Positions 15,640 to 43,743 of a stretch of DNA of 64,000 bases are shown piece after piece. Position 1 is the stretch's first letter. Each line of letters begins with the position of its first letter. The position numbers and the translations under genes are program-made. The stretch is from Bispira polyomma (Eukaryota), in NCBI GenBank assembly GCA_965649765.1, contig OZ287749.1, forward strand, positions 22,630,001 through 22,694,000, written 5' to 3'. The notes below the pieces were generated by a model. The model was not told the origin of the DNA and did not search any database. It saw only the letters and a program-made list of their open reading frames with translations.

Positions 15640-17259
15640 CTGAAAATGTACCACATCATTGCATTACAATCCAAGAGCTACATTCTAGAACTCTCACTAG
15701 ACTAAGCGAAGTCATAATGAAAGTAGTTCTCCCTAATAATGCCAGCATTAGGGTTTTATGTTATCCTTGATGTTGTCACTGTGTATTCATACCCAAAATC
15801 CAATATGGCTGCACATGGTCTTGTGAATTTTGGAATTGTTCGTAATGCATGCTTTCTCACTGCTGTAATATGAAGTTCATATGGCTTAATTAAACACATC
15901 ACAATGATTATAATCTACCTGTATTAGATTATACAACATCAACGCTCCTGTGGTTTTATTAAGCAAAATAGTTTAAACATTACAAGTACAAACTCTTAAC
16001 CATTACTTGCTAAACGCTTAACATAAGAGCAACCTGAAGGTCTATCCAAACTATGCTAATGGATACCCAATGAAAACCTTCAAACTATTTCACAGATCAA
16101 AGAATATTACTATATTAATGGCTCTTCACAGTATTTAATGTACTTCTGTATTGTCTTTAAAATGGAATATCAAACTAGTGGGATTATAGCAGACATTCTT
16201 TAACTAGAACCAGTTGAAGCCAACTTTCTCTCTAGAACTAGACAACATTTTATGGTCCCAACATAATTTTAAAGTTTTATTTTGGGCATATTGATTAGAA
16301 GTTACCCACAACTAGAACCAAATCTTGTGGATAATATGATGTCTGATTTTCTAGTAATTTTTTGTTGCACTTGTTTTTTATGTTACTAAAAAAAATTAAT
16401 AAAATGGAATTTTTCCTCATTTATAATTTCACTTGTGATCTCCCTTTGCCAAGTGGTTAGGAATTTGGTCTTGTGATTAGAAGCGCGTCGGTTCAACTCC
16501 CAGATAAGCCACAATGGTTACTGAGGGATAATATATCCATGGGCAAGACATCTACTGAGGAATACCATTGCCAACTGACCCCAACTGAATGTCTCTCCCC
16601 CCAAAAAAACGCGTCTTAGAGGATGCATTTATAAGTTTGTAATTTTGACTCTGTATAAATTCTTTAAATTGTAAAAATTTGCAGGTTTACATCTGTTTGC
16701 TTTTTTTGAATATTTCTCAACATCACACAATATAGTAAATCAGAAATAGAAGAAGACTACAATCAGATTGTATCACTCTTTACTTAATTTAGAGGTGCTT
16801 TCTGAAAAGTGTTATTACAGGGTTTAAATGGGAGCTCTTTTTCCAACTAATATATGATCTTTCTTTTTATTAATATACCAATATTATGAAGTGTTATTTT
16901 CCTTAATTTTTTTCTTTTTCTTTTAGTGCAGCTTGCCCTTTTTGTTGGATTCAAAATGCCATTGAACACTTTCTTTTTACTACACTAGTACAGAGAATAT
17001 TTGTATTGTTACAGAGGCCATTCAAACAGCTCACTAGGGTAATTTTTCAGGAGAAAACTTGAGAAATCATTTTTGTTTGAAAAATAATCTTTGATAGCGT
17101 TATGTTTCCATGTTTCCAAGGATTATAGCCAAAAATAGTGTACAGGCTGTATGATTACTAGAATATTCTATGCACTGTTTGCACTTATGCAATATACTAG
17201 TATGGTGATTGCATACAGACGGGTCTGTTTAGATCAATAAACAATTTACCTACAATCTG

Positions 17260-17381
17260 CTAGGGCAAGGGAACATCCAGACACCCTCTCTTCAAGGTTC
17301 TCCTAACTTCACAGCACACTTGGTTGATGAGATACACCAATCGGGATGCGGAGAGAGAAGGGTCTCTTTGCAAGGTGAACG
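17260..17381 (-). CDS. Alternative last exon 7
   Basis: ttttccaaattttag|CG then FTLQRDPSLSASRLVYLINQVCCEVRRTLKRGCLDVPLP*. Confidence 0.83.
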
Positions 17382-18950
17382 CTAAAATTTGGAAAAGCAA
17401 GATTCTCAGAGACTTTTGTTTGCATAAAATGTTTCCAGGATTTTCTTTGATGTATGTTAAGATGGCTAGTTCATCAGATGAGATTATTACCTCTGCAAAA
17501 GTTATGTTTTTGGTTAGTTTGTCACCATGACTACACAAAGGCTTCTGAACAAATTTGATGAAGGGATGGAGCACAGACAAAGGAAGATTGCACTAAATCT
17601 GGGTAGAAGCGCAGAGCCAGGAATTTTGCACTGTGGCACCTTGGCAAAGGTATGCACTGTAACAATGAATCAAAAAATTAACAGAGTGATCTACGTTTGC
17701 AAGGACCTTTAATGTCTCAAGAGGCACACACACAATGACTATATCAGCTAGACTATAGTTTCTCCTTTCTAAATAGCTACACTGTTATGGTAATGGTCTT
17801 AGGTGATACAATAATAATAATAATAGCCACTACCAAACATTCAATAGATGGTAGTTCTAGGATCATCTTTGCACATTTTTTAAAGTATTTTCACTTCACT
17901 TTCCTAGTAAAATGTTTTAAGTTAATGGTTGTATTTGCATGTGATTTAGGTTCTAACATAAAAGCATCTCCATTGACTTTATATAGGAAACTATAGTGTA
18001 TTGACTTCATGGATACCAAACATCATCGTGCTACATTGCCTTGGTTGTGTCTCAGCAATTTATATGATGGGGAAACTACCCTAAAAGCTACAAAAAAGTA
18101 TGGGACAGGCCTCTTATAAAAATGTGTTAGTTGGTCTAAAATTTTAGCTGAATTTATATAAAATTGGTTGGTTCAGCAAAAATTTTAGGAAGGAGTTATG
18201 AAGGAGTTTATTGTATGTACTGGTACGTTGGTCTAGATGTCCAGTCTAGTTGCTTTATGGTCTATACTGATAATTATAATGACTGATGTATAGATTAGAA
18301 CAAATTCCTTGATCCTGCATAAAAAAAGACACAGTTACAACAATCCAAACATTTATTGACATTCTACGTAATTAGAAGACCATAAATGCTTATATATACA
18401 CATAATTACCGGTAGCAATTGTAATGCAAACCATCAGAAAACTACCAATTACAATAGCAGCTAGCCTGACATGAATAATTTTTAAAAAATAGTTTTAAAA
18501 AGTAGTAAACTAAATAAAATAAATTGTTTTCAGCCGTAATTTTACTTCTTCTGGTGACTAAACACAAATGAATATCTCACAAAATTTGCAAACTTTTAAG
18601 AATATTCATGTTGCTGATAAAAGTCTAAACTAAGTTGGTAATACTATCGAAAAAATAGAAAGCTAAAACTTAAGCTTGTGGCACCATAGTTATACACATA
18701 TTAATATGCATCAAATTGCACTGAAATACGAGTTAAATTTTTCACAATCTTAAATACACAACTCCTCACTTGTCAAACAACGTCCGTGCATCAAATTGCA
18801 CAGATATACTAGTTAAATTTCCACAACCTTAAATACAGAACTCTTAACTTGTCAATCAAAGTCCAGTAGTTTACAGGCAAAATACAGTCAGGAATAGATG
18901 ATAAGTCACTATAAATCAGTTAAAATCCTTGACAGTAAGGATTCATTAAA

Positions 18951-19060
18951 TCAGACACAGTTTTTTTTCCATAGTTGCCTTCTGGCTTCATAACAGATCA
19001 AGTCGATAACGGCCACAAATCCTGACGATGTTAATTTTGGATCAACTTTCATGGCAACCC
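18951..19060 (-). CDS. Alternative last exon 8
   Basis: ctatattttag|GG then VAMKVDPKLTSSGFVAVIDLICYEARRQLWKKNCV*. Confidence 0.82.
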
Positions 19061-20832
19061 CTAAAATATAGAATTTCAAGAGTTAGCATTCCAAGTTGAA
19101 AATCAATAAAACAGTGCCAATAACTTTGTTATTTAGTCAACAACGTAATAACTTGAATGGCCTAAAAGTAGGTTCTATATATGTATAGTAACATATATGT
19201 AGTTAAAAATAACTTAATTATTTAAATATATGTGTATAGTCTAAATATAAATTAAAGTTTTTTTCGTGTTTTAATCTGCAGTAATCTTGCATTCACAGTG
19301 ACATACTTTGACATTCAGTTATTTTGAGGCATATTATAAATAGCGTAATTTTTATTAATATACACAATGTGTAGTCTCAAGGTAAATACCAGTATGAACT
19401 AAAGTATCTTAGAGTTTTTATTTGTAGTAATTTTGCATTCACAGTGACCTACTTTATCATTCAGCGATGTTTGTTATTCCTTGTTAACTGTTATCATTTG
19501 TTACCAACAGGGTGTAACTACAATAGAGCCAGACTTATATTATTTTTGAATTCCTTGATTTCACTTAAATACCAGTTCAACAAATTGCTGTCATTTCTTC
19601 TGTTATATACTAAAATACCTCTTTTACTTTGGGAACATTCTATCATCTGAACAGACAATCATTCTCCCAAAGTATACCAACAATTAATTATACAGATTTT
19701 ACTGAATCTACTATACAGTGAACTTATGACAAGTCTCCTGTACATACATACACCATATGTTTTGATACATATACAAGTGTATTTTTACAGAAATAATATC
19801 AGCCTATACCAAACTTAAGAATACTGTTACCAGAAACAGCTATCACCAGAAATTAAGAAAAGAAGAAGAATTCACTCTAACGTCAAACCAATACAACACC
19901 ATTTTACATACAACATAAATATTTCTACTAAACATTACAAAGTAAATCTATAATATCTTTATACTGTTTCTTTGTCAAAAATTAAGTTTGTACATCTGTT
20001 ATGTAAACATCAAATTTAAAATGTACTACCACTGTTTTCGCAGACCTGCTGTAAAATATAAACACATTTCTGGACCAAACATGGTTGGTATTTCTTACTC
20101 TAACATTTGTTATATGATGACTTTCAAATATCTGATCGATATACCTTCTTCATAAATCAGCAATTACCATACCGTAATACAAATGCCTTGATAAGCTTAA
20201 TATTTCTATTTTTCCTAAAATACATTTTACCATTGTCTTTCTTATCTTACTACACAAAAGGTTTTACATCAGATGAACCTTATCTCCTTAAACATCCATG
20301 CACCAAAATAAAAACCCCGACGGTTTAACTTATACCAAAATTTGAGCTGATAAAGAGTTCAAGTAGAAACACTTTCCTTTATGCATTATGCCACTCACAG
20401 AGAAAATCAGGTAATCGTGATTAAGGCTTCTGAGTAGAGGACATACTAAGCGTTTCAAATTGAGAAGCAAACGCATAGTAGAGTATGCTTACTGTGATAA
20501 AGGCAGCATATATATATAAATATTAACATAGGCTAAATTCTATAATTTATTGGTCAGGTTGTGGCCATATCAAAAGTAGTTCTTCCTACTATCACACAGC
20601 ATTAGGGTTTAGAGTTATGTATTCATACACAAACAATCAATGTGGTTGCTACTTGTCCAGTTATTTCTAGAATATTTAAGTGAACATTGTGAAGGTTTTT
20701 CCTGAGTTTTTGCAATCGTGGAATCCTGTGGCCTCCATAATATTTCTGAACCTGGTTCCAATCAGAGTACAATCCTATAAATGCATAAGGTGCTGTGCTA
20801 TTTTTAGAGACTACATAGTCATGTGACTGGTT

Positions 20833-20954
20833 TTACAGAGGAAAATCAGTAGGTTTGGCCCTGCGTAGCTGTCGCCGTGTCTCAGAACAGATGAGGTTGA
20901 TAAGGTACACAAATCTAGAAGGAGTGAAGCCAGGATCACATCTCATGGCAAACT
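20833..20954 (-). CDS. Alternative last exon 9
   Basis: gtatgttttag|AG then FAMRCDPGFTPSRFVYLINLICSETRRQLRRAKPTDFPL*. Confidence 0.85.
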
Positions 20955-22567
20955 CTAAAACATACAAATCATATCGTAATGTAGTCTATCATTATGTGCC
21001 AAATATGAAAGCTCACTATTCACAAACTTTAGAGTTAGGCTGTCAACATAACTTTTCACACCCGTTGCCAAGTGTTGCTAAGGAGTTTTGAGCCCATGTT
21101 TCTAGTCAAGCGACTTCTGTCATGTGACTAAAAAAAGATCAACAACAGCAACCAACCTACTCAGTACAGAAGCACTACTAGGCCTTGTATGCAGTGAAAT
21201 TTTGGTTGCATTTGAAAGTGCTTGTATTCTGCAGGCCCAAACTTATGTTATTATATCACCCATACATATTTATATTAATTTTGTTTTTGGTTAATATTGT
21301 TTTATTACATAAAAATTTCCAACACACAGACCTATCCATCTTTTAAAACATGCAATCACAACATTGATAGCACTTGCCACATCTCCGATTTTCTTATAAA
21401 TTTCTGTACATGCTGTCAAATTATGCAAATAATTTTTCTACGAATCTATTTCCATTTTTGAAGCACCATTTTAAAACTAGAATATATATGTAAGTTTTAT
21501 AGGTGTTACAATACGACTATTTTATCAATCACCGCCACAAATTCACAATTTTAATAACTTTGGATATAAAGTTCAACTTCAACTGATAATATCTGCTACA
21601 ATATTTATTGGAATTAAATTTGTAAAACCTTATGCAAAGTACATGCAAAGAGCTAGTAAAGCCCAAACAAAAACTTCAGGTTAAGTATTCACACAGTTAT
21701 ATAACCATTTTATCAGTAGAGATTTTTTGTGGGAAAATACTATGAAATATATTACATTTTGTGTGATCATCAAATCTGTGGTCTGATCTGTGGTCTGCTG
21801 CAGTGACACATTATAGGTGATTAAGTCATGGCTTTAATAACCTACACCCAATCAGATAACACATCGGAATAACAGTAGTTCGCTTTACTTTTGGTGTTTT
21901 CGCTTCTACACAACCAAATTTAAAAACAATATCCAATAAGAACAATATGTGATCTTTTAAGGTGGTATTTTTTGCTAACTAAATAGATATTGCTTACAAA
22001 GAATAACAATAACAATAAATCGATTATGACCAAATTTGTTCACCATCATTTCCAGCATTGCATATTATATTCAGCTTTTAATTTTTTAGTTTCTGCCAAA
22101 ATGACTTAAGTTATATTGATCTAAGAATTGGTTAGTGTATATCAGTATAACAGGGTTTCTCATAAATAAATAAGCACACATGAATAACCTAGTAACTTTT
22201 ATTTCTGGGGAAAAACATTAATGTTAAACTAGATATTGTCACAGACAACATCAAGATGGGAAAACTATACAAAACCAGCCAGCTTTATTATCACCCTCCT
22301 GATCGATGACACATCTTACACAGATGACATTATTTGATGACATCATCTGATGTAAATATGATTGATCATTTCTACTGATCAAAATAACAAAATGCTTAAT
22401 ATGCTATGATACAATGTAGCTTCACACTAAATACACATACATCAACAAAATAAACACATACATCAACAAACCTAAGTGTTTCACAGTTCTGTCTTACTTA
22501 AACCAAACCATCAGAACAAAAACTACACTACCAGTATTTGTTTACAGAAAATATTCTGTCATACTGA

Positions 22568-22704
22568 CTAATATTTAGTAGATTTCATGCTTGATATACA
22601 TCCAGCTTTTCTCCTCAGTTTTCGGCGAGTTTCTACACAAATCATGTTGACATTAGTTCTTACATCAGCAATAGTCAAATCTGGAAACAAAATCTGGCCA
22701 TATG
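22568..22704 (-). CDS. Alternative last exon 10
   Basis: ttttgtttttcag|CA then YGQILFPDLTIADVRTNVNMICVETRRKLRRKAGCISSMKSTKY*. Confidence 0.85.
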
Positions 22705-23264
22705 CTGAAAAACAAAAATATTAAATAATCCGTCATAACTTTTCTTTCTTCTTTTTCCCCAACCATTAAAATAGGTTATACACAGCAAGCAAATTAGGCT
22801 AAATTGAACTGTACACATATTAATACTCTTAACTTCTGGTAAACAAGACATAAATTTCTGATGAAGTAAAAAGGAATGCATTATAAACACACTCTGTTGC
22901 ATTTAATCAACATGTACTATAGGAAGTATACATCTACTCTACACTATAGCAGGAAAAAAATCAAATAAAAAAAATCATGGAATTAAACTTGCATTTTCAC
23001 AATTAAACTCAATAAACCCAATGCCAATTCTAACACCAAGTTTGTGTACTTGACACTGGCTAATTAAAAAGTATGGTTAAAGTCCACAACCAACGCTAAG
23101 CAAAAGCCAAGACTCTATAATGTTCTTGCATGCACACTTAAATACAGTCACCTCTTTATAAATCAAATGTACAATATCCACAGAATTTGGTGATACTTGA
23201 ATCTAATTTGGTTCTATTTATACCCAACGTAAAACTAGTTCTTGAAGGTGCCAGAGAATAGGTA

Positions 23265-23439
23265 CAGTGGAACCCTGTTAAGTCAAATTTGAAGAGACCA
23301 TACAAATTTGTTCTACTTAACAATAATTCTAAGTAACAGGATAAAGTTTAATTACAAATAAAGCAATGGGGCCTTGAACTAACTTCTATTTAACAGGTAA
23401 ATCCAGTTATCAGAGTTCTACTTAAAGGGGGTTTGACTG
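23265..23439. mobile_element. Tc1/pogo-type MITE
   Basis: TA|cagtggaaccctgttaag...cttaaagggggtttgactg|TA; related copies at 36312 and 59921. Confidence 0.7.
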
Positions 23440-24206
23440 TATAGAACACATAGATAGAGAGTCTACTGTGGTCCCTACAGTGATGTAATTTTATGTTCAA
23501 TACAGACAGATTTAGGTAAAACCAAATATTAATTTGCCAGGTTAGAATATTCAATGACAAACCAGGGATTTATATTTGGCATTTTACCACCGTAACACTT
23601 TCGACCCCAACGTATCAATGGCATTTGTTACTACTAAAGAGTTGTCGATATTTAATAACCAACTGAAAGGTTTAGCGAAGTAAAATATGTGTCAAATGTA
23701 TAGGTTTTGTCATTTATTTGTTGTCAATTTTTATTTTGTAGACTGTTTCTGGTACATGTGACGACAAACAGGAAGTCTGTTTTGTTTAGTCTGCTTTTAT
23801 TTTCGCTTTTTATGTTGGCATGGAAAACAGAGCTATAAATGACTGAATTTGCCCTAATTGGCTGTTTATTTAATACTTTGTGCAAATTATCAAGTTTAAT
23901 TTTATCAAGAATAATGTAATTGTCTAATGTATTTCCCTATTTTGAGTGGTTGTTCATTAAAAGTTATTTTGACCCGATAGTTGTTACTATCCTTATCAGC
24001 AACAATTAGTCGTGACCTCTTATCATGGTACAATGGCTGCCATATTACAACTTGTTATGGATATTTCCCTAATTCATCATGAATAAACAGTCATAACGCA
24101 CAACCATCAAGACTTATTCTGAAGACGAGAAGACATTCGCATCTAAACATTTGTTTTGACAACTGTTTTCAACATCTAGATTTTAAATACTACAACAGAT
24201 AAAAGA

Positions 24207-24379
24207 TTATTCTTTTGGTTTGTCAGTTTTGCAGATATCTGTAAAAATATCTGCAATCTGTTTCTCGTTGAGTTTCCTATTCTTGCGGACTATTTGTCTA
24301 GCTTGACAGCACATCACATTGATATCCTGTATGACACTGTATTCACTGTAGGCACCCCTCGTCAGTCGTGTGGTAAAGA
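24207..24379 (-). CDS. Alternative last exon 11
   Basis: ctttttattgcag|TC then FTTRLTRGAYSEYSVIQDINVMCCQARQIVRKNRKLNEKQIADIFTDICKTDKPKE*. Confidence 0.82.
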
Positions 24380-25729
24380 CTGCAATAAAAAGGGAGAAAA
24401 CAGGAACCATATAGTCTTGCCCCTGAAGTAGCACTCTTTCAAGTCAAAGGAATCAGTAGTCCCATATGCAGCATTTTCTTTTAAAATCTAGCCCATTAGC
24501 TGAATAACGGGGGCAACTGTATACAAGGAGGGGTTTCATCAACTCGGATTTATGCTTACACAGTAGCACCTCTATTATCCCAAATTCTAGTAATATAAAT
24601 ATTCAATTTTCATGACCTAATTTCCAAAATTATCCTAAATTTAGTTTTCCCATTGAATCTGTTCTATGTGGAAGTGACTCTTCTATTTAATGAAAATTAT
24701 ATTTTTTTGAAACAAAATCTTGTTCTGTGAATATGTTCTAATGATAGAGGTTCTACTGTACTACTCAAATATTCAGTGCCTACATTAGTAAGCATAGCCT
24801 AGACATTTCACCATTCATGTTAGTAGAGCACATTGTGTATTATGAAACTCCAAGAGAATATAGTACAAATATTTAAAAAAAAAAAGGTCTAGACATCAAG
24901 AAGTAAATGTACAATTTGGTAATGAGCCTAGTATTTTAGTGCTTTGCTAACATATCTGCCTCTACAAACAACCAACAAAACCATCTAGGCCATTACAGTT
25001 TTACAAGGATTACAGTGACATCAACCATGGTTTCTTAAATATGTACCATGGATACATTCTGACCATAACATTTTTTTTCTGCACAGTTAACACTCAGCAT
25101 CATGTCGAGGCAGGCCATATCTTTATGACAAAGTTAACATGAAAAGACAAGTATTCAAAAAGTAATTGACCAATACAAAAGTAGTTTACTATAAACGTAA
25201 AACATAGTATCACATTTACCGATATTAATAAAGTCCAGTTAATTGTAGAATTATAGATATTGAATTATCCATACCACAAAATAATGCTATAAATACCATC
25301 TTCACCTTCACATCTAATAGCTTTTTATTTAGTATATGCCATGTTAAATTTTTGCTGGTCATTAACATCTGTGTGAATAAATTATTTATATATTCTGAAC
25401 GTCCCTTTGGTTCTATACATTGAAACTCTATTTTCTTCACATAACTTTCGAGCCACAGCAGTACCTGATTATTCCTATGTACATGAGAATATTTCTACTG
25501 AGTCATACACTTGTTTAACATCGCTAAATCTTTTCAATCAGGATACACACTACTACCTAGAAATATGCATACACTCTATCTGTGATTTATAGTTCATAAA
25601 TGTTAAACTCATATCCATTCAGTCTACATTGAGTAGTAGAACAAAGTTCAGAACAGACATCCTGAAGTTGTTTTCTTGTTATTTGTTGACCAGCAGTATC
25701 TGTCTGAAGACGATAATCTGATGTGAGGT

Positions 25730-25854
25730 CTATTTCTTGTCCAGTTTCTTATTGCCACGGCGCAGTGACTGCCTGGCTTGTGCACGCATCACATTGATAT
25801 CATTTATTATGTTGGTTTCAGTGTAACAGCCTTGCGTCTGTCGTTTGACAACAG
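25730..25854 (-). CDS. Alternative last exon 12 (conserved Cys replaced by Arg)
   Basis: ccttgtgttgtag|CT then VVKRQTQGCYTETNIINDINVMRAQARQSLRRGNKKLDKK*; paralog of exon 11. Confidence 0.75.
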
Positions 25855-25909
25855 CTACAACACAAGGTAAAACAACATGATGGTATTTCAAGTATTAGCT
25901 TCACAGGCC

Positions 25910-26430
25910 TTAAGGTGGCGTTCTTTGACATACACAGGTGTTAAAGTGGTGTTCTTTGACATAGACAGGTCTTAAAGGTGGTATTCTGTGACATACACAG
26001 GTGTTAAAGTGGTGTTCTTTGACAGACACAGGTCTTAAAGGTGGTGTTCTTTGACATACACAGGTGTTAAAGTGGTGTTCTCTGACATACACAGGTCTTA
26101 AAGGTGGTATTCTTTGACATACACAGGTGTTAAAGTGGTGTTCTTTGACATACACGGGTCTTAAAGGTGGTATTCTTTGACATACACAGGTGTTAAAGTG
26201 GTGTTCTTTGACATACACAGGTGTTAAAGTGGTGTTTTTTGACATACACAGGTCTTAAAGGTGGTGTTCTTTGACATACACAGGTCTTAAAGGTGTGATT
26301 CTTTGACATACACAGGTCTTAAAGGTGTGGTTCTTTGACATACACAGGTCTTAAAGGTGTGGTTCTTTGACATACACAGCCTAAAGTATTGTTTTTCGAC
26401 ATACACAAGCCTTAAAGGTGTGGGTCTTCC
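25910..26430. repeat. Minisatellite, 30/31-bp unit (~16 copies, with a 61-bp dimer structure)
   Basis: taaag(g)tggtgttctttgacatacacaggt(g/c)t repeated; explains spurious ORF 25910-26245. Confidence 0.92.
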
Positions 26431-26708
26431 ATATAATATAGCCTAAAATCCAAACAAAGTTCCAGAGTTTTATTAATGTCTTTTGTACAAGAAATGGGTA
26501 GATATTCTCTTAGTTTATCAAATGACAAATGTTTATCCACTTGGAGTTCTTGTATCGTAAATAGTTTTGGTAATAGTCACTGAAGATGGGACAACACTGT
26601 GCTCTTTAAATGTAACCTTTGATTCTTGTGTCTCTAACACTTAAAGCTATTTCATATATTTTCTCTAGTAAATCCAGTACGGTCAATGTCCCATCCTTAT
26701 TGGCTAAT

Positions 26709-26836
26709 TTAAGAGAGAGTATTGTGTTCTTTCTGCATGTGTTTTCGTAACTTCCTCCTTTCTTCAGCACAAACAGAATTGATCTCATATACAGTCATTG
26801 TCTCCGTCATTGATGGAAATCTGGACGCGGTTGCAA
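26709..26836 (-). CDS. Alternative last exon 13
   Basis: tttccatatttcag|TT then ATASRFPSMTETMTVYEINSVCAEERRKLRKHMQKEHNTLS*. Confidence 0.85.
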
Positions 26837-27049
26837 CTGAAATATGGAAATAGTCTAACTGTACACATAATGCAAATATCATGGTCAATCTAGTTTACAG
26901 GCAATATCCCAAAAGAAAATTGTTTGTAGTAGAATAATGGTCAAACTTACTGACATTGAACATATGGAGCTTAAATTAGATGCTTTACCTGTACTTTTAT
27001 TTCACTTGGGGAATTTTTTGATTTTACCCAGGATTGGTACCTGTTTTAG

Positions 27050-27258
27050 GTTATATTGGGACGGGTAGTTGGAAACGCTGGAGGAAACACTGCATACAGT
27101 TGATCAAGGTTCTGCACTGAAACCAGCGACCTACAGTAAGGAACTACCACCTTTCCAACATAGGCATCGACGAGAGTCGAACTCACGCCGCCCAGAGGTG
27201 AGAGACCAGTGATTGTGAAGCGCAATAATTGCTAACCACAAGGCCAACGCGGCCCCCA
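27050..27258 (-). mobile_element. tRNA-derived SINE
   Basis: Minus strand gggggccgcgttggccttgtggttagc (A-box)...gagttcgactc (B-box)...gtttcctccagc core; absent from the paralogous segment near 29100. Confidence 0.7.
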
Positions 27259-28496
27259 CCTGTTTGGTGTAGATTTGGTACTGATATATAAATTCCCCAG
27301 TATAAAGGATCACAGCACTACTGAGGTTACTACACAGTTTTTGTAGAATGTATGTAAGCTAACCGGTTGAAACTCAAAATTTTATTTATTTAAAGAAGTA
27401 TATCAATTATGTCACAGAGTTAACATAAACAAGAAATTTGCTGTACATGAATGAAGAATGCTCTAGTCTGTCTTTGTTGATTAACATACTCAACAGAGTC
27501 CCACACAGCACATGCGAGCAGCTACAAAGCCTTTCCCTACGAAATCTTCATAGGATATATAAAATTAAACATAAGATTAGACATCCAAATTTAGAAAGAA
27601 ACTCTTATTATTTGAATATTCAATTTTATGGGCACATTTCTACTCTCCCAAATATTTATGTCCTGTTATTTCATACTAAAATGCCTGTTCTATTTTACAA
27701 ACCTTCTGAAATCTTAACAATAAAAAGGTTTATGTCACATCCATGTTGGGATAATAGAGATTCTACTGCGTTGCAATTTCATATTAAAGTGCAACTTACA
27801 TTAAATTGCAATTTTACATTAAATTGCTACTGTGATTACACTTCTAATCATGTACCAAGAGGAAAATCCAACAAGCTTAATGTTATACATACATTTTCAA
27901 ATAACATTAACTTTAAGAAAGTTAGCTACAAAACTCAAACAGCAAACCAAACAACTTAAGTTAGCAGAAACATATCTATCAACTAAAACCGCAAACCAAA
28001 CAATTAACACCACAATTTAAATAGAAAAAACTACATTTTAATCACACAACCTTAATTAATAATTACAACTTAAAGAAACCTTAAAAGACAAAGCAAGTTA
28101 TCAATGAAAGCCCTGTTATGTGGCATTCACAAAGTTGCCATTCTCTCCCGATCAGCCAAATTCTAATGATTGGAAGTACACTGGTATAAATGTAGCAAGA
28201 ACTTGATAGTGTCATTGTGATACATTGACCAGTTGTTTGTTTCTTTATTAAAACTTACAAGTAAAAAAATCTTTGAAAAAAAAAAATATTTAAAACCAGT
28301 TGTTGGTTCAAACCTAAATGTGTAAATTTTACATCAGGTTATACAACAGTTTTAATAAGTACATGAAATTTTCGGCCATTATTGACATTATTTGGTACTT
28401 TTCCCTGTGGATAGTTAGGTAACCTAAATCAAGGAGACAGTTAATTTCTTTTTACATTTGTAGCACAACTGTTACAGTTTTTATTGTGTTTTAGGT

Positions 28497-28567
28497 CTAT
28501 TTTCTAAGTTTGTGCAATTTTTTTCTCTTTAGCCTGTACCTCTTCTCAGCACATCTTTGGGTTATTT
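28497..28567 (-). pseudogene. 5'-truncated copy of exon 15 at a duplication junction
   Basis: ITQRCAEKRYRLKRKKLHKLRK* aligns with 32253-32310; the junction supplies a potential acceptor ctttttttggccag|AA. Confidence 0.65.
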
Positions 28568-28792
28568 CTGGCCAAAAAAAAGGTAGATCTTCCCTAATTT
28601 ATCAAATATAAAATGTTTATCCACTTGTAGCTGCTGTATCTTAAATAGTTCTGGTGATAGTCACTGAAGATGGGACAACACTCTGCTTTTCAAATGTAAC
28701 CTTTGATTCTTGTGTGTCTCATACTTGAAACTATTTCATATATTTTCTCAAGTCCATCCAGTACAGTTGATCTCCAATCCTTATTGGCTAGA

Positions 28793-28920
28793 CTAAGAGA
28801 GAGTATTGTGTTCTTTCTGCATGTGTTTTCGTAACTTCCTCCTTTGATCAGCACACACGGAATTGATCTCGTATACAGTCATTGACTCTGTCATTGATGG
28901 AAACCTGGACGCGGTTGCAA
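28793..28920 (-). CDS. Alternative last exon 14 (recent duplicate of exon 13)
   Basis: tttccatatttcag|TT then ATASRFPSMTESMTVYEINSVCADQRRKLRKHMQKEHNTLS*. Confidence 0.85.
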
Positions 28921-30017
28921 CTGAAATATGGAAATAGTCTAACTGTACACATAATGCAAATATCATGGTCAATCTAGTTTACAGGCAATATCCCAAAAGG
29001 AACACGTTTGTAGTAGAATAATGGGCATATACATAATGCAAGTCACAAGTTACTAAAACCAAGATTAAAAGTTCTCGAATTCAAAGGTCCTTACTTGATC
29101 CAAATTTTGAAATACCTCAGTTCAGGGCCTATAGTTAAAAGTTTCTGTTTTAATATTCACCAGTTTAGTGTAGATTTGGTATTGATATATAAATTCTCCT
29201 ATTATTGAGGTTACAACAGTTTTGCAGAAGGTAAGCCACACGGCCAGTTTTTTAAAACAAACTGATGTAAGACTGGACAAGAACACAAGTGAGGTTAATC
29301 AGTTGGTTTATTTATTTAAAGAAATATATCAATTATCTAACAGAATAAACTTGCAAAAATAAGAAACTTGCTGCACATAAATGAAGAATTCTCTAGTCTG
29401 TCTTTGTTAACATACTCCACAACCTCCCACTCAGCACACAAGAGCAGCTACAAATCCTTTCCCTACGACATTCTGAACTTAACATTTTAATATCGTCAAT
29501 GGCTCAGAAGAGTAAGGGCCATAAGTCATAAAAGTGTTTTAAAATGTATGCTCAAACTTACATACCATATAAATTTCCTTACTAATAGGAAAAACTAATA
29601 AAAGGCATCATTAGGTTGACTAATATAGCTATCAGAGAAGAACTTGATTACATAGTCAGATTTTAGGTGTCTTTATAAAGTACACGCTTACAGCACCGTA
29701 TATTTTCTTTCTTATTATTCAGATTTTAGGTGTCTTAATAATGAAATTACAGCACTGCATATTTTCAGATTATTGTTACTTTATATTAAAGACCTTCGAT
29801 AAATGTAGGTTTAAATATACACCGATTTTCCTCTTCTGATTATCAAACTAATACAAAATTAAACAGTACTGAAGCACTAAAATAAATACAGGTAGCAAGC
29901 CTATAACACCTCTAACAACATCTGTTTCACAATTCTGTTCAATACTCACAAATTTGAAACTATATTGAAAGATATTTTACGCAATACAGTATAAACTATA
30001 TTTTCAGAATATTCTAT

Positions 30018-30315
30018 AATGCTGTGGTCACACTGGGTTTACGTTTTGATCACGCACAAAAAATGGCTAATATTTAAAATGAAGAGAACGAGATCGGAAC
30101 ATGTTTAGAAACGTGGCTAAGGTATTTTAAAAAGTGGCTAACGGTCCAAACATAATTTAAACGGCTATTAAAATGAGTACAGAATGTGTACAAAATGACC
30201 CATACTTTGGTTTTTTGCTACGTTTTCCTGAATTTTCACTTCATTTATTTCTGTTTTCTTACATTTACGGAATGTTAAACATAACACAAAGGTGCTCAGT
30301 GTCACCAAGGAATTA
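30018..30315. mobile_element. Possible PIF/Harbinger-like MITE
   Basis: Imperfect TIRs taatgctgtggtcacactg / cagtgtcaccaaggaatta. Confidence 0.4.
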
Positions 30316-31605
30316 AAGGCACTGTTTTACTCTCCAAAATATTTACAGTAGACTCTGTATAACTAGAACCTCCAATATCCACCGGATGTGTTTCTAGTCA
30401 CAGCTAACTTCCATTTATACCTACAAAAATACAACATCTTCCCAATGTTGGGACCTCCATGAACTGGTTCCACTTGTACTTAAATTCGACTTACACTGGT
30501 CCGACTTGTACAGTCTACTGCATATCCTATTAATTCAATCATGTACTAAAAGGCCTGTTTTATTATATGAACCTTTTGAAGTCTAAACAATATCATATTC
30601 ATGTTTGGATAAGAAACGTTCTACTATATTGCAATTTTACATTAAATTGCAAGAGAGGAAAATTAAACAAGATTACCATTATATATACAGCATCCTTAAA
30701 TTACATAAACTACTTGGTTAGCTATATAAACTAAAACAGTAAACTAAAAAAATTAACACCGCAATTTAAGGAAGATAAAAACGACTTAATACTATATCGA
30801 AATAAGAGCTACCATCATTCTGAGTTACAACTTTTAATCACACAATCTGAATATGTGGCGACTTAAATAATAGTTACAACTCAATGAAACATTAAATGGC
30901 AAGGTAAAGTTGTACATGACAAACCTGTTTAAATAGTTGATAGGTGGTTTATTTATTAAAACAAACAACCAGTAAGAAATCTTCAAAACCAGTTGTGGGT
31001 TTCAAAAATAAATGTACAAGTTTTACATCAGTGTACTTTATATGGATTTACTTTTAGGACGTTACTCGACATATCCAAAAAACACAATTTGGTACCTTAT
31101 TCTGGCAAGTTGTGCTGTATAAATTTAACATATTAAAGGATCTACAAACTTTTTTTTTTTTTTAATTTGTATTTTACTAATTTACTGGCAAGTTGCCAAT
31201 TTGCTTTCATAAAATAACTGCAATTAAAGGGCAAAGTAAACCTAAAACTAGTGTAAGATTAAAATTCTACTAGACAAACTTAGAAAATTTTAATTCCGCC
31301 TAAGCGAAATCAAAATTTTAATTTTGCCTGGGCGAGATTAAAATTTTTATTTGGTTTAAAATCTGCCTGGATTTTAATTTGGCCTATGACATATACTTCT
31401 AAATCCCCAGAGGTAGTCAACTCATTATATAAACATTGCAACAACATAGCTCTCTGGACTTCCTAAGTAACAGCTTCAAATGCTATATACAAAGCAATAT
31501 CAATTGGATGTGATTTGACTTGGGCATATTTGAGTTGCAAGATTTACGAACATAAATATTCGTTCATTCACTAGTTAACGATACTTGCTACTCACTTCCA
31601 TGAAG

Positions 31606-31894
31606 TAGTGGTGGATGATTAGACGTGTGCTCGATTAATCTTTGGTGATACTGCATGATCGTGGTCGATCAGTCTTAATTTTAGATAAACGATTACTTAC
31701 CAAATACTGTACCTTACTTCAACTAATAAAATATTTTTATATTTTAATGTAATTTTATATAGTTTTTATGTCAAAGAAAGCAATTTTTGTCACTTCTACA
31801 TTTTGTCACGTTTTACGTCAATTATAGGTCGATCATCGGTCGGACAATTAAGCAATCAATCGACCTGCAAAATACAGACTAATTCCCAACACTA
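31606..31894. mobile_element. hAT-type MITE
   Basis: 8-bp TSD ccatgaag at 31598-31605 and 31895-31902; TIRs tagtggtgg / cccaacacta. Confidence 0.75.
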
Positions 31895-32252
31895 CCATGA
31901 AGTAGGCTATGTTGTATTGGTTTGTCATCAGGATTACACAGAAAACTACGTAAGCGATTTGCTTAAAATTTGGCACAGATGTGATGTGGGGCAAGGAAGA
32001 ATATATAAACTTTGAAGTGGAACCACATAAAAGGGTGAATCCAGGAGCTTTTTTCAGTTTTTGATGTATGACCTCTATACCAAGTGTTATTCATGCTACC
32101 ATCTCGTATGAAGTTGGTTACTTTTATTATTTGGTACTTTTCTGTGGATAGCTAAGTAAGCCACATTAAGTAGACATTTAATTTTTTTTTAGATTTGCAG
32201 AACAACTGCCTTGGTTTTTATTGTGCTTTAAGGTTTATTTTCTTGGTTTGTG

Positions 32253-32353
32253 CTACTTTTTCCTCTTTAGCATGCGCCTCTTCTCTGCACATATTTGGGT
32301 TATTTCTGCCACCACAAGAGATTTCTGCCATTTGGTAGTCGATGACACAAAGT
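32253..32353 (-). CDS. Alternative last exon 15
   Basis: gtttaattacag|AC then FVSSTTKWQKSLVVAEITQICAEKRRMLKRKK*. Confidence 0.8.
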
Positions 32354-33091
32354 CTGTAATTAAACATAGACAAGATGTAGATACCAGTAACCTACATGAC
32401 CTTTGAAGTTCAGATGTTACAGTAAATTTGTACGTGTTGACCTTTATTTGGGATTTTTTTTTTTTTAATTTTCTTAATTCTGGGCTTCGGACAGGACTTA
32501 AAGATCAAACAGATGTTGTCCAAATTTCATGCAGAAAATATCTGATATTTTTGAAAACTCGTTTGTATAATATATATTGCAAAAACATAGTGTTTTTACA
32601 ATTTTAGTTTATATTTGCAATGTACATATATACAAATTATTCAACGGTTTATGTACATGACAGAGTCCGTGGAATTAGTCTGCTTTGGAGAAGGGATCAA
32701 TCTGAAAGATTTCAAAAGTATTTGAGAATTGCAATTGATTTATTAGATTGCGCCAGAGAAAAGCACTTTGCACAAATTCTTGTTGTAGGAGTTGGTTGTA
32801 TCTTAAAGATTTTATTTTGGTGAAATTCCATTAGGTATTCATGGCCAGCTCATCATGAAGAGCGTTAGGGTACACCAGGACATTGACAAATTCTTAAATC
32901 TTATTTTATCAATTTTGGTGAAATAACCAGATGTCAATGTAATTTTATTTTGATTCAAAGCATGTTCTAAAGTGCAACAATGAAATGAATTAACCAATGG
33001 ATAAGTTGGAAAAACATAGCCAGTGTAAGCAAGTCTACTTGTTCTGGGCATCACAGGTGACAATCTTTTCAGTGTCTACTGGACAAGTCCA

Positions 33092-33255
33092 TCAATATTG
33101 TTCAGAACCTCTACTGACTACTACTCCCTTTAGAATGTCTACGGTCGACTGTGATTCTCCCCTGCGAACAAGACATTTCCGTTGTTCATGGCATATTTTA
33201 TTGATTTCACGGGTTATTCGATGAGATGTCAAACCAAACTTCAATATAGTATATT
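33092..33255 (-). CDS. Alternative last exon 16
   Basis: ttctattttacag|AA then YTILKFGLTSHRITREINKICHEQRKCLVRRGESQSTVDILKGVVVSRGSEQY*. Confidence 0.85.
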
Positions 33256-34008
33256 CTGTAAAATAGAAACAAACTGCTTTAATATTTCTATCTTTTTTTA
33301 TTGACCATAATGCATGAAATACAACAATAATGCACAAAAATTTGACTTAATCTACAAAAGAAATGCCCTATCTTGTTTACATCGCTATTTCATCAAGACA
33401 AATTAGGCGTTTATAATCCTTTTTTATGATCTAGAAAATTTCTTCTTTTTTCAATACAATGACACCATTATGCACTTCTACATCCTTATCCACATCTATA
33501 AATATCTATATTTACTTAAAAATATTATAAATACTAAACTAATAGTTAATACTACGAACACACTGTCCCTAAACTACATGGTGTGACTTTTTTCTTCAAA
33601 GTTACACTATTTTATCATCAAACACTTACATCATTAAAATTACAACCACTTAGTAACACTAAATGTACAAGATTCAAACACAACCTCAACTTTTTAACAT
33701 AAAACTAGAACGCTTTACATTAACACCTAATTTTGGGAGAGCCACTATCACTTCATGAACTCCAAAATTCAATCACTTGAATTTCAGTCTATAAGATACA
33801 TGTACTGCAACCAAACTATCCACTTATTGTAGGTGGATCTTCCTTAAACAGTACAAATACATGTAGGAGGATTATCACTGAAAAACTGTCTTTTGTCATC
33901 ACTTTATACATTACACAACAGTCACATCTATAGGTACAAGTCAAAAACTTTAAAATAGTAAGACACCAAATCAGCTTTATAAACACTAGCTCTTTCTTAA
34001 GTATGAAC

Positions 34009-34382
34009 TAGTGGATAAATTGTTTATCGATATCGGCAATATTTATTGTTTGGGCTTTTGCGTTCCAATATCGATGTGTAATACCAACCCATCAATACCA
34101 TAAATGATAGTTATTTAACTTTGGGATAACATTTTATCAACTATTTTATTGATATTTTATGGTTAATACCTTTTAAATTATGAATGATAACCATTTTAAG
34201 TCCATTTTTACTTGTAAACATATTTAGCGGTTCTCAGTTCCGTTTCATTTGGGCAGGTTTTTCGTTTTAGAAATATGTTGCATTTTATTCACGACTTTCT
34301 TTCTATGTCCCGATATTGGCCGATATTAAAGTTATTTAATTTTTGATATCGATCTCCACCAGCACAAACGATTTACCCAATA
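34009..34382. mobile_element. hAT-type MITE
   Basis: 8-bp TSD gtatgaac at 34001-34008 and 34383-34390; TIRs tagtggataaat / atttacccaata. Confidence 0.75.
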
Positions 34383-34889
34383 GTATGAACAAATCACTAC
34401 CTTTATACTAGAACACAGTACATTGCAAACGCCACACCACAAGACCAGTGGGTCTGCAACAATTCCATTTTTATTTACTGCAGTCATTTTTGGAATACAT
34501 CAATGCTGATAGAAAATAGAATGACAATGAAGTTACCAGACAATCGCATCATAAAGGAATGCAAAAGTTGTACAAATCATTGTACTATGAGAAAAAGATA
34601 TGTGTGGTTTATAGTAGCCTAATTGTGCGAAATCCAAAGTATGCACTGGATTGATCTAGTCAATATGATGAAAATGTACAAGCAGTAAGTTTTTATTACC
34701 TTAACATCTTGCAAAAAAAAGCTATGGTGAACTATACCTTATAACTATACTTTACAAAGGATCGCACACGATTTAAAGAAAAAGTCACTTACAATATTTT
34801 AGGATTAAGATAACTATCTTTGTCATGAGTGCAGCTTTAATCTAAACTACTTTTCAAAGGATTGTCAAAAACTAAAAACCTCAATGTTC

Positions 34890-35008
34890 CTATTCAAGGC
34901 TATATTCTGAACTACGTATTTTGACTTTCTTTCTTGCTTCAAAGGTTATTTTACTGATCTCAGTGACAAATGTTGAATGAGGCATATTACAGCGAAGTCT
35001 TGCCACTT
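34890..35008 (-). CDS. Alternative last exon 17
   Basis: ttgtatttgcag|AA then VARLRCNMPHSTFVTEISKITFEARKKVKIRSSEYSLE*. Confidence 0.78.
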
Positions 35009-35381
35009 CTGCAAATACAACAAAAGTTAGACCACAATGAAACCCACTTGTAAATACACACTTACTTTCCTTACATAGTAAAACATCTATTATCCAATTA
35101 TATTGAGAGAACAAGATTCTGTTGAGAGAATAGAAGCATCATGACACAGGTTTGAATATATCAGTTTCGGTATGATGCTACAGATAAATCGAATATATTG
35201 GGAAAGGTAAAAATTGTACATAAAACTAAATATTTATATAACAAAAGTTGGGATAATAGAGGTTCTACTATCCAGACACTTCCGAGACTAAAAGCTGTAC
35301 CGAGATGTCGGGCTTCTGATCTAATGGCAAAAAAGAAACCAATGTACACACTACATTCATACATACATAAACATTGTAGTC

Positions 35382-35385
<4 letters not shown>

Positions 35386-35421
<36 letters not shown>
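35386..35421. repeat. (TA)n microsatellite
   Basis: Directly visible. Confidence 0.95.
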
Positions 35422-35426
<5 letters not shown>

Positions 35427-35886
35427 TAGTGTGTGACAGGCACATAATACTATATTGTAATATACTGTTAAATAAATTAGGCTATATACCACATCCCACA
35501 TGGGTTTGTAGCAATTTTTACATTAAAATATTTGACATTGAAAATATCTCCATAGTACACAGAGCTTCAAGAAACACAAAGTCAGAAATAACGATAGTTA
35601 GTGACTGTTGCAAAATTAATCATTAGTGTAAATTATTAATGTGTTATTATTGTGTAACTATTTCACTTCAGAAATCTTCAGTGGATATCGAACTTTGTAT
35701 TAGTTGTACACATTTTCCATTTGAAATACATAAATATTTAAAAACGCAGCAGAAAGGTACCACTTAATCTTTGCCAAAAAGGTCTGCTTCCTTTTTAATA
35801 AATAAACAACAATTTTGATAGATAGCTAACATATACATACAATACCAGTAATTCACCACTTTCATCTAACCTCACAGATTTGGGTC

Positions 35887-36015
35887 GTCAAATTGTCACT
35901 AAAGCTGAATTATTAGTAGTCAAATAGTCACTGAAGCTGATTTATTAGTAGTCAAATAGTCACTGAAGCTGATTTATTAGTGGTCAAATAGTCACTGAAG
36001 CTGATTTATTAGTCA
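35887..36015. repeat. Minisatellite, 32-bp unit x~4
   Basis: gtcactgaagctgatttattagtagtcaaata repeated. Confidence 0.9.
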
Positions 36016-36311
36016 TTTAAAACATACAATTCTTTTCCAGGATCTTTGTTAAATTGTACTTGGACAATAAAAATTATATTTTTTTTTAATAACTGAAATC
36101 CACTTAAATTTTTATATGACAATTAATATGGCAAAAGGCCATTCAAAGATTATTTATCAAGCAAACATTCAGCAGGGAAGTACCAAACTTGTACTTGTTG
36201 TCTCACAATAAGGTTATAATCGAAGTCCTCAGAAACAAACTACATGTACATTTATGACTATTCATTATAAAACCTTTTCACTCGTTTTTCAAATATTACT
36301 CCAGATTATAA

Positions 36312-36484
36312 CAGTTGAACCCCTTAAAGTAAAACCTCAGGTCCCAAGGAGCAATGCCTCAACTTAAGCAGGCTGGCCACTTCACTGGGTAAATTTGAAA
36401 AGGAAACAACTTTTTGGATCACAGATTTTTTCCACAAAAAGGGGAAATTAACATTCTGGAGGTTTAGTTAAAGGAGTTTGACTG
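36312..36484. mobile_element. Tc1/pogo-type MITE
   Basis: cagttgaaccccttaaagt...ttaaaggagtttgactg|TA; same length class as the 23265 and 59921 copies. Confidence 0.6.
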
Positions 36485-36589
36485 TATTGTGCATGACAAT
36501 GGACGAAAGTGTTACACAATGTGTGAGTTTGAGCCATTGATACAGGCTCGGTTAGTTTCAAACTTCAACTTTCTTTCTTTGGCAGAATG

Positions 36590-36699
36590 TTACTTAGCTC
36601 CCTTTAACTTCTGAACTTCCTTTCGAGCCTCAAAGCACATAGTGCCAATTACAGCAACAACCTCAGAATGAGAAATTTTGCAACGATATCAGACTACTT
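36590..36699 (-). pseudogene. Array exon with a premature in-frame TGA
   Basis: tttttcattccag|AA then VV*YRCKISHSEVVAVIGTMCFEARKEVQKLKGAK*; TGA at 36689-36691. Confidence 0.75.
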
Positions 36700-37113
36700 C
36701 TGGAATGAAAAACAGGAATATTACAACACAAGAGAGATACAACAACTTCATGAATCACCTTAGAACCCGCTAGTGTGCAGAAATTAGGTACTTTGCTGAC
36801 TGATTGATGGACCGGTTGATTGATTGCACTGTAGTTTAGATAATGTTTTATCGTTGATTGTAAAAGACCAACTAAACATCAAACTTCACCATTTAAATTA
36901 TAATCTTTAAAGTTTCTTGGACCATAATAAATTTGGAAGGGTACAAAGCATCATGCATCAAACTTTCAGCAATCTTTTGGTATGACTACATCAACAATTT
37001 TGTTTTTATTCAGGCAACTTCTTTTCTATTTTTTTTTCTTATTTGTGTTCAGCCCTTATAAAGTTTATGGTTCACAAATCCTCGCCATACTATCCCGCTA
37101 ATCCTTTTAACAT

Positions 37114-37223
37114 CTATTTGATGTCTGACAGATTTCGGACTTTTTTTCTTGCTTCGAACCTCATTTTGTCGATCTCGCAGTAGAATGCTCTGGAAGACAT
37201 AAAGCATCTTCTTTCAACAGCTT
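37114..37223 (-). CDS. Alternative last exon 18
   Basis: gtgtttacag|AA then AVERRCFMSSRAFYCEIDKMRFEARKKVRNLSDIK*. Confidence 0.78.
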
Positions 37224-38295
37224 CTGTAAACACATACAGGAGGACCTCTTGAGTATAGCCCAGAGCTCGTCTAAATAGACAACAAAAAGAGCACCAGAAG
37301 GCATCATATTCTTGTATGAACCAACATAAAAATTGCAATACTACCACAACAGACCATTAGTTACAACAGACAAGAGGTTCCACTGTACATGTTAATTCTT
37401 ACATTCAGCTGATGCATAGTTTCAATGGTTTGAAAAATATCTGTCATGTGACTTCTTAACTTTCTACTTGTTATAGTTACTCAAACAATACAGGATTGTT
37501 TGTGTTAATATTGTTAGTGTTCTTTTGGAAAACAAAGAGGTATTGATCACCATTGAACATGTGTACAGGTAACATCAAGTTTGATACCTTAAAATAATTA
37601 TCAAATATTGCGGTTTTAAGCTTGATAATACAAACTTTGTATTTCTAATCGCTTTTACAACTTCTTACATGATCTGATGTAGTAATGGGTCACTTGACTG
37701 AAGTTGACTTGGGAGCCCCAAAAAAAAACGAATTTCCATTAAAATGCACATCAGTTGTTTTAGTTCAAAGCTGCTTTGCACAGATTCTTATTTTAAAATG
37801 AATGTCTCAAAGCCTCAACCAGTTTAGTTGAAAATATTCTTTTAAAGAATCTGATCAGCAAAAAAAAAAACTATTTTACGCATGGTTGTGAATATTGCAA
37901 AAGATCTCCATTTTAACAATATCCTTTTGAAACCATATCAATTAAGTGTCAATATTTAATATTGTGCTCCTTTCCTAAACCCAAACTTATTTGTTTCTTA
38001 ACTGCAGTGATACTGTCAGTCTGGCATCACTTAAACTTTTTGGTTACAGTCTACAAAGTGTACAATAAATATATGAGAAACTACACATTCAATAAATACA
38101 TTACTACAGGGTTGCTGAATCCAGCTATTCAGCCAATACGGTGTCTTGTAACAATAACCCAACCAATTCATCCAGATTTATTCGTATGTAATCTATTTAT
38201 CAGAATATTCTGATGAATGGTTCATTGAATTCATCTCATGGTGATTCATATCCAATGCAGAAACAGTGTCATCCACTAACAATATATTCATCATG

Positions 38296-38540
38296 TTACA
38301 ATGTTACAGTTTCATCAAAGACCGAGGGAAGCTTCAAGTCTTCCGGCATGATCATTTGCATGGGTTTAGGTGCTATCTTTTTCATTCTTTCTGGTTTCCA
38401 AATTGGATAGAGCCCTTTGTTTTTGGTTTGTATTGCAGATTGCATGGCCTTTTGGTATCTTTCCTTGGCTTCAAATCGTACTTTAGCCAAAACAGCTGAT
38501 ATTGTTCTCGGTGTGATGTCAGTCTTGCTCTCAACATAAG
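38296..38540 (-). CDS. Alternative last exon 19 (long tail)
   Basis: gtgttttgcag|CT then YVESKTDITPRTISAVLAKVRFEAKERYQKAMQSAIQ...DETVTL* (80 aa). Confidence 0.75.
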
Positions 38541-39364
38541 CTGCAAAACACATAAAGAAGCTTTTTAATTCTTGATAAGTTTGTCACATGATATCTTTTT
38601 TTTAAAGGTTCCTCGGTAATACTCAAAATGAAATTTAGAGTTATTCTCAAGTAAAAATACAAAACCAAGTATGCCATGCAAATGAAACCACAATTAGTTC
38701 CTTTTTTAGATACAACATCAATCATCATCTTTCAAAATGAAAAAATCTCACAATATTATCAATACAAAAAAGTTTTTTGATTTATGCATTGGAAGCATTT
38801 CTACTGTTGAATCCGATAAAAAAGAAAAGGGCTAGTCCTACAAAACATAGCATTGGCCGTCATCAGCAGGCAATTGTCTGTTTGTATATATATCTTGCAC
38901 AATAAGATGTTATCCCCCTGTAGCCATTTCGGCATTACCAGGAGTCAAACCATTGACCTTATGACCACCAAATCAACTCCACAACCACAAAGAAGGTTAA
39001 AATGCATGCCTACTGATTGGCACTGAAGATTATCATGTTTGTGTCACACCATGCATGCAAGATCATGTGAAGGAAAATTCTTGGTACAAATCTTTAATGT
39101 AATACTACAATGATCATCAATTATCAGACAGTCAACATCATTCATCAATATGTCGGCACTTTAACTACTGTTGCCTCTAATGACGACATTAAGTTTTCAA
39201 ACTTTTTTAAGCACTGATAATCTAAACCAAGATTGCTCTGTCTTTAATAAAAAATTTACAACATTCTATATGCCTGCAAACTATTAAGGATAAAAAAATC
39301 CATGGACAATGGGATTACATTCACTGAAGCTCAATCGCAATGGGTTTCTTCCAAAGTAGAATCA

Positions 39365-39474
39365 CTACAAAACACTGGATTTGGCTTGCAGTTTCTTTCT
39401 GGCTTCCAGACATAACTGGTTGATTTCCTTCACAATGAGACCCATAGGAAACTGGTTGCAACGGCAGACATACT
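39365..39474 (-). CDS. Alternative last exon 20
   Basis: tctgatttacag|AG then YVCRCNQFPMGLIVKEINQLCLEARKKLQAKSSVL*. Confidence 0.82.
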
Positions 39475-43600: not shown

Positions 43601-43743
43601 TAACTGATATCTTCATAGATGTTGCAATCAGCTATTTCCATGTATCTCTAGTTGCAGTGGTTGGTCTTTAAAATTCAGTAAATACGACTTTTTGATAGTC
43701 TCAACCTTTATTGTTGTAAGTTTTAAAGGTCCAGATAGGAATT

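Follow-up and report, generated by a model that had tools for sequence, protein, structure and literature searches.

Two short, almost identical exons, here numbered 13 and 14, lie on the minus strand of a 64,000-nt stretch of Bispira polyomma DNA (the window), and they raise the question of which protein they would complete. They are two of 74 same-phase cassettes behind an exon coding for half a BEN domain, and we consider it very probable that one donor joins any of them, giving isoforms predicted to read different DNA. Each mRNA would take a single cassette as its last exon; the major-groove helix would then come from the cassette, and the scaffold with its minor-groove loop from the constant exon.

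Coding constraint on exons 13 and 14

Both exons are 128 nt long and in phase 1, and in front of each lie a pyrimidine tract and a CAG. The sequence-only reading had counted nine differences between them and no indels, and our recount on a gapless alignment returned the same figures: five synonymous changes (AGA/AGG, ACG/ACA, TAT/TAC, TCT/TCC and GTT/GTG), three replacements (ACA/TCA, T/S; GAA/GAT, E/D; GAA/CAA, E/Q) and a preserved stop (TAA/TAG). The two adjacent replacements after the conserved cysteine (CAEE versus CADQ) fall at positions +2 and +3 from it, with E,E in cassette 13 and D,Q in cassette 14. We also arrive at the numbers 13 and 14 when counting from the window's left end without the relic of cassette 15 (Table 1).

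By the Nei-Gojobori method, differences affect 5 of 28.1 synonymous and 3 of 97.9 nonsynonymous sites, giving a dN/dS of 0.154 (Fisher one-sided p 0.013 for the synonymous excess), and, when the eight substitution types were placed at random in 20,000 trials, five or more were synonymous in 1.7% of them (mean 1.9). The remaining two sense frames contain stops and no synonymous change; the antisense frame with common third positions gives a dN/dS of 0.146, as expected. Since synonymous divergence is near that of the 3' flank, where 28 of 190 bases differ, the shortage lies in replacements. The pair by itself is weak evidence of coding (p about 0.015) and it is the array that settles the frame, its overall dN/dS of 0.24 agreeing with the coding constraint proposed earlier for the two exons, which is thus supported. 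This constraint demonstrates selection for the frame, present-day splicing exon by exon being a separate matter.

Origin of the pair

Exons 13 and 14 arose by a duplication of 2–4 kb whose breakpoint cut cassette 15. The two units of this duplication (Table 1) align in ten collinear blastn blocks with 73–96% identity. The relic sits 220 nt past the stop of exon 14 and marks the breakpoint, with 83% identity between 28387-28570 and 32126-32308; we infer that it is the residue expected of unequal crossing-over.

The intron directly 5' of the two exons is identical at 79 of 79 nt, i.e., it is better kept than the exon, and this block may be a conversion tract or a splice regulator. It folds into a modest hairpin approximately 25–55 nt before the acceptor (approximately -14 to -19 kcal/mol when the flanks are included, computed without a shuffle control), and no long complementary partner was found for it in 364 kb. 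At the flank rate, zero differences in the block would occur by chance with a probability of about 3e-6, and the other blocks of the same duplication are mostly 73–86% identical. For this pair only, the low divergence might accordingly reflect recent gene conversion, with a synonymous excess (p about 0.015 only) partly due to chance, an explanation that we regard as possible but unlikely. The synonymous sites of the exons are in fact 18% different, against 15% in the flank, so that exons 13 and 14 were not recently homogenised, and the region from -40 to -1 is well kept in further close pairs (39/40 and 33/40), which fits constraint on splice signals. We thus favor constraint on the frame for the exons, while recent gene conversion is allowed by the identity of the 79-nt intron block.

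A row of cassettes behind three constant exons

An iterated profile search of the window and 300 kb of neighbouring DNA identified 74 homologous cassettes, all on the minus strand and spread across about 102 kb; the window contains 47 of them. Acceptors were called by script in 73 cassettes and read by eye in one (42638-42756). At one profile column AG is present in 75 of the 75 aligned hits (79 were entered, four without a residue at that column), against 0–3 at ten other columns, and it is always in phase 1; upstream of the acceptors, T occupies -5 in 71 and -6 in 72 of 73 cassettes. With their variable tails after helix 5, the cassettes encode 33–90 aa in total. Beyond these, only the relic and one weak match were gained from a stop-tolerant protein search and from a DNA profile. 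Poly(A) hexamers are found up to 600 nt from the stop in 61 of 73 cassettes, which we do not count as evidence because, by a rough estimate, it is about what AT-rich DNA would give.

The best match of 52 of the 73 cassettes lies within three places, as local duplication predicts, and the array has grown by local tandem duplication. A recent duplication with 88% identity occupies 61183-63421 (acceptors 61496/63017). A stray partial copy of the cassette at window position 33255, comprising its acceptor and 5' half, is located around G000:C2:22551900, approximately 55 kb past the array end. Minisatellites are present in the inter-cassette introns, at 8605-8832 (57 nt units), 25902-26420 (31/32 nt), 35887-36013 (32 nt), 43368-43599 (29 nt) and 47587-48229 (48–58 nt), and a frame at 3935-4399, which has no Pfam match, resembles the C terminus of LINE reverse transcriptases. 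Pfam matches of single cassettes (APOBEC4-like, E 0.013; HTH_46, E 0.16) were dismissed as chance, and a metagenome scan for orthologous arrays returned three loci, all unrelated, GC-rich, bacterial-looking chance matches.

Three constant exons, approximately 59 kb upstream of exon 14 and on the same strand as all cassettes, together comprise 330 codons and one base, and their donor phase fits every acceptor. The last of them encodes the first two thirds of the BEN domain, and each cassette encodes its C-terminal third. In a genome search BEN constant exons were found at two places only, one with 74 cassettes and one with 4, and the cassettes are thus not the ends of separate genes. The second one belongs to a divergent paralog (Table 1) and scores 25.6 bits against PF10523; a third N-domain gene starts at G000:C2:22761511.

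Table 1. Features of the locus and of its paralogs. Plain numbers are window positions; past the window ends this numbering, given in brackets for the constant exons, is the position on the contig G000:C2 minus 22,630,000.
Feature	Position	Strand	Remarks
Whole array	G000:C2:22606561-22708997	-	-23.4 kb to +79.0 kb in window numbering
Window part of array	1698..63852	-	47 of 74 cassettes; array passes both window ends
Cassette 13, predicted alternative last exon	26709..26836	-	42 codons and stop; BEN helix 5 and the latter half of helix 4
Cassette 14, predicted alternative last exon	28793..28920	-	128 nt; recent duplicate of cassette 13
Intron block ending in exon 13 acceptor	26837..26915	-	79 nt, identical to 28921-28999
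Intron block ending in exon 14 acceptor	28921..28999	-	79 nt, identical to 26837-26915
Tandem duplication unit, downstream copy	26488..28570	-	exon 13 and intron, between the cassette-15 relic and 220 nt of downstream flank
Tandem duplication unit, upstream copy	28573..32308	-	exon 14 and intron, between the 3' half of cassette 15 and 220 nt of downstream flank
Acceptor-less relic of cassette 15 (3' half)	28497..28570	-	inside 3' flank of exon 14
Cassette 15, intact parent of the relic	32253..32353	-	duplication breakpoint falls inside
Cassette with premature stop at codon 4	36590..36699	-	intact acceptor; only clear pseudo-exon of the array
Constant exon 1, unnamed N-domain	G000:C2:22718992-22718872 (88992-88872)	-	upstream, outside window
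Constant exon 2, disordered linker	G000:C2:22718637-22717973 (88637-87973)	-	outside window
Constant exon 3, BEN helices 1–3 and start of helix 4	G000:C2:22717699-22717495 (87699-87495)	-	phase-1 GT donor
Second BEN gene, divergent paralog	G000:C2:22729625-22751349	+	domain split in the same way, four cassettes
Zinc-finger row	G000:C2:84221238-84227863		at least 10 two-finger C2H2-type frames behind one N-domain constant exon; row may continue

Splicing route

The simplest route to the predicted isoforms would be cis-splicing coupled to 3' end formation. Identical proteins could also be produced by trans-splicing, in which cassettes transcribed from internal promoters would be joined to the constant exons, as in mod(mdg4) and partly in lola, and we hold this to be improbable. 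The 8.5-kb intron contains one 9/11 match only to a U1-complementary motif. Between the donor and the most distant cassette, approximately 111 kb away, there are 73 competing acceptors, and the closest analogues do trans-splice, but the 74 cassettes all share one strand with the constant exons, whereas exons of mod(mdg4) occur on both (both points on the analogues from PMC13490949).

We detected no exon-choice signal in the cassette upstream regions or in the constant intron. There is no 7-mer common to more than 8 of the 73 upstream regions, and a search for docking or selector sequences gave 107 short reverse matches between these regions and the constant intron, which are scattered, with at most four per 100-nt bin; G-U-rich or weak pairings escape such a search. 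Over the part of the locus between the constant exon and the three cassettes closest to it, three sequence runs behave as DNA contigs: their cover is even, and the matches listed include no splice joint.

The cassettes as the end of a BEN domain

Constant exon 3 alone matches the Pfam BEN profile (PF10523) over positions 1–45 of 76, with 22.7 bits against a cut-off of 23.2, and none of the 11 cassette-containing sequences scanned matches BEN on its own. A profile search retrieves NACC1 (E 3e-8), Bsg25A and Insv. Most representative homologues (24 of 27) lose similarity at a glycine exactly at the donor point, as expected if a G|GT donor is read through, and since relatives in protein collections are mostly such intron read-through fragments, the family may have been overlooked. 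Two homologues run past the junction into a cassette-like helix, Helobdella robusta HELRODRAFT_183479 (P0133; UniRef T1FJQ8) and the unnamed P0147, and the full-length homologues score 36 and 29.4 bits against PF10523. HELRODRAFT_183479, a single hypothetical protein that may be a computed gene model, contains the N-domain, a long linker and a full BEN domain (Pfam positions 1–73 of 76, 36 bits); its junction is at the identical residue and it shares 59% identity with the constant exon over the aligned part. The last homologue search made yielded P0133 alone.

We modelled the leech BEN domain with AlphaFold, using 34 window cassettes in the alignment; the folded sequence, which is that of the leech homologue and not that of the Bispira gene, gave five helices with a pLDDT of 91.7. 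The junction is placed inside helix 65–78 (the middle of helix 4), and the next helix, 84–108, corresponds to helix 5 and would be wholly cassette. In a Foldseek search with this model ranks 1–16 are all BEN domains, with TM up to 0.78 and a best E of 1.8e-3, none having E < 0.001, and the modelled fold has the BEN layout, in which two strands at the N terminus are combined with five helices, the C-terminal one being long. Judging from the model, helix 5 is encoded by the cassette in full, and helix 4 from the junction onwards.

DNA-contact positions

In solved BEN-DNA structures, helix 5 is the base-reading helix in the major groove (PMC11472053 and PMC4281564). In NACC1, bases are read by D462, T465 and R469 and phosphates are contacted by N466, R468 and R472, and the D462A and R469A substitutions lower binding (PMC11472053). 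Relative to the conserved cysteine of the cassettes, the first three residues align to -2, +1 and +5 and the other three to +2, +4 and +8, and Bsg25A D349 and K352 (PMC4281564) align to +2 and +5; position +2 is a base contact in the fly proteins Insv and Bsg25A and a phosphate contact in NACC1 (same two sources). By this correspondence, a near-fixed arginine at +4 would grip the backbone, and -2, +1 and +5 would set the base preference.

Among 73 cassettes, entropy reaches 3.8, 3.5 and 3.8 bits at -2, +1 and +5, and 0.36 bit at +4. Arginine or lysine is present at +4 in all 73 cassettes and at +8 in 65, the positions of NACC1 R468 and R472, and 72 distinct combinations are observed at -2/+1/+2/+5. 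In 20 close pairs the base positions changed in 38 of 60 cases and the backbone positions in 15 of 60 (p 4e-5); other exposed helix positions changed in 44 of 80 (p 0.39 against the base positions) and, since they vary as much as the base-reading ones, diversification for specificity is unsupported. The DNA grip thus seems to be conserved across the cassettes, with the read-out free to vary.

This equal variability at exposed positions without known base contact, together with the variable tails past helix 5, would also be seen if the isoforms were made but recognised one common DNA motif, with cassettes that differ chiefly in stability, in the interactions of their tails or in control through the 3' UTR. 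We find this distinctly improbable, as a common motif would hold the base positions fixed, like the arginine at +4, whereas the specificity residues of NACC1 map to the 3.5–3.8-bit positions. We therefore retain isoforms that are predicted to differ in DNA specificity. As exons 13 and 14 agree at -2, +1, +4, +5 and +8, these two would be predicted to bind identical or slightly shifted sites.

Selection across the array

Codon models of 72 cassettes over 29 codons gave the dN/dS of 0.24 mentioned above, a value to be read in view of a fast tree search, of synonymous sites near saturation and of codons taken from columns picked by the profile. In 20 of 20 disjoint closest pairs pS exceeds pN over the first 33 codons, and the pooled dN/dS is 0.27, with dN biased down because close pairs were selected by protein similarity. 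Both the pairwise and the tree-based comparisons called for by the sequence-only reading are thus well below 1 overall. Values near 1 in close pairs, which it had named as the sign that would speak against constraint, were nevertheless found for two pairs of acceptors: 61496/63017, with one synonymous and five replacement changes over 40 codons (dN/dS about 1.4), which suggests relaxed or positive selection, and 77910/78482 (about 1.0 over 40 codons).

Frames are open in 73 of the 74 cassettes, against 12–34% expected under simulated neutral decay, and although the median pairwise pN among cassettes is 0.53, acceptors are intact in all. With such frames and acceptors and an array dN/dS of 0.24, it is extremely unlikely that the array consists of unused exon copies with one working last exon, even if a premature-stop cassette, a relic and a stray partial copy exist.

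N-domain and zinc-finger paralogs

The N-domain has about 55 aa and is predicted to form one helix and a beta-hairpin. There is no Pfam match for the N-domain of the paralog or for the linker exon, no ESM Atlas match to the N-domain and no Foldseek match to its structure, the best VIA Z being 4.7 (rmsd 2.2, 56 aligned) and that of MADS-box cores 3.2–3.8, all of which is too weak to name a fold. A protein search with the N-domain returned 355 proteins, and the best 120 of these 355 include a Capitella teleta zinc-finger protein; those relatives that carry a name are annelid. In the genome the N-domain has at least 17 matches, all on G000:C2 (one contig of 75), from 4.7 to 84.2 Mb; divergent pairs are found at 4714441-/4727670+ and at 22718867-/22729625+.

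We scanned the surroundings of seven further paralogs and identified zinc-finger rows at three, with no clear row elsewhere in the DNA examined. In the ten-frame row (Table 1), nine frames have a phase-0 acceptor that fits its constant exon; the smaller rows, of five and three frames, are located at 28656-28668 kb and 4738-4751 kb. Among unnamed relatives, P0039/P0152, P0107/P0153, P0113/P0111, P0030 and P0014 have a common N-terminal part and one switch point, after which their ends are zinc-finger, FLYWCH, helical or apparent intron read-through.

Comparison with known systems

We favor, as rather likely, the view that a lophotrochozoan gene swaps the recognition helix of one DNA-binding domain among about 73 working exons, a library larger than those of lola and mod(mdg4), and that this BTB-free family came to the design of lola on its own, where dimers formed via an undescribed N-domain may further multiply the specificities. 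If the isoforms are made, one locus would be equivalent to about 73 transcription factors with a common scaffold and a differing base-reading helix. The cassettes would also be a ready data set for the BEN recognition code, which now rests on a handful of structures, and they pose a tractable splicing question, that of one donor facing 74 terminal acceptors over about 100 kb. Literature searches (BEN with splicing, annelid and mollusc; N-domain motifs), mainly of open-access coverage, returned no description of this type of locus; isoform models may exist in databases.

The Bispira gene resembles NACC1, BANP, BEND3, BEND6, Insv and Bsg25A in the BEN fold and profile and in having mappable helix-5 contacts (PMC11472053 and PMC4281564). 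Known BEN factors, however, have one fixed helix 5 each, no array of alternative helix-5 exons being found for others in the searches made, and the N-terminal partner in Bispira is an unnamed domain. Helobdella HELRODRAFT_183479 has a like architecture, with N-domain, long linker and C-terminal BEN domain, and is seen as one protein.

Dscam-type clusters consist of dozens of tandemly duplicated, internal and mutually exclusive exons of a surface receptor. The Bispira array is similar in having dozens of tandem exons that each give part of one domain, but its cassettes would be terminal exons of a predicted nuclear factor, and no common docking site was found for them, whereas selector sequences are described in Dscam-type clusters (PMC6071210).

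The nearest likeness, in genomic anatomy only, is with lola and mod(mdg4), in which alternative 3' exons for DNA-binding parts are likewise lined up behind constant N-terminal exons. Of the 20 isoforms of lola, 17 differ in their C2H2 ends, and at least 30 isoforms, mostly FLYWCH, are described for mod(mdg4) (10.1101/132027, PMC11426971, PMC13490949). No BTB domain was found by Pfam in the linker exon, the paralog N-domain or the full-length leech protein (which matches BEN only), so that the Bispira gene is not a lola or mod(mdg4) member; in PMC11426971, TTK-type BTB is reported as not found in Annelida or Mollusca. As far as the sources cited describe them, the variable exons of lola and mod(mdg4) hold a zinc-finger or FLYWCH domain, whereas the Bispira intron cuts a single domain, inside helix 4, and the Bispira array has 74 cassettes on a single strand, against 20–30 in lola and mod(mdg4). 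Together with the zinc-finger paralogs, this suggests a second origin, on a different scaffold, of the lola design, which is known from the BTB genes of arthropods.
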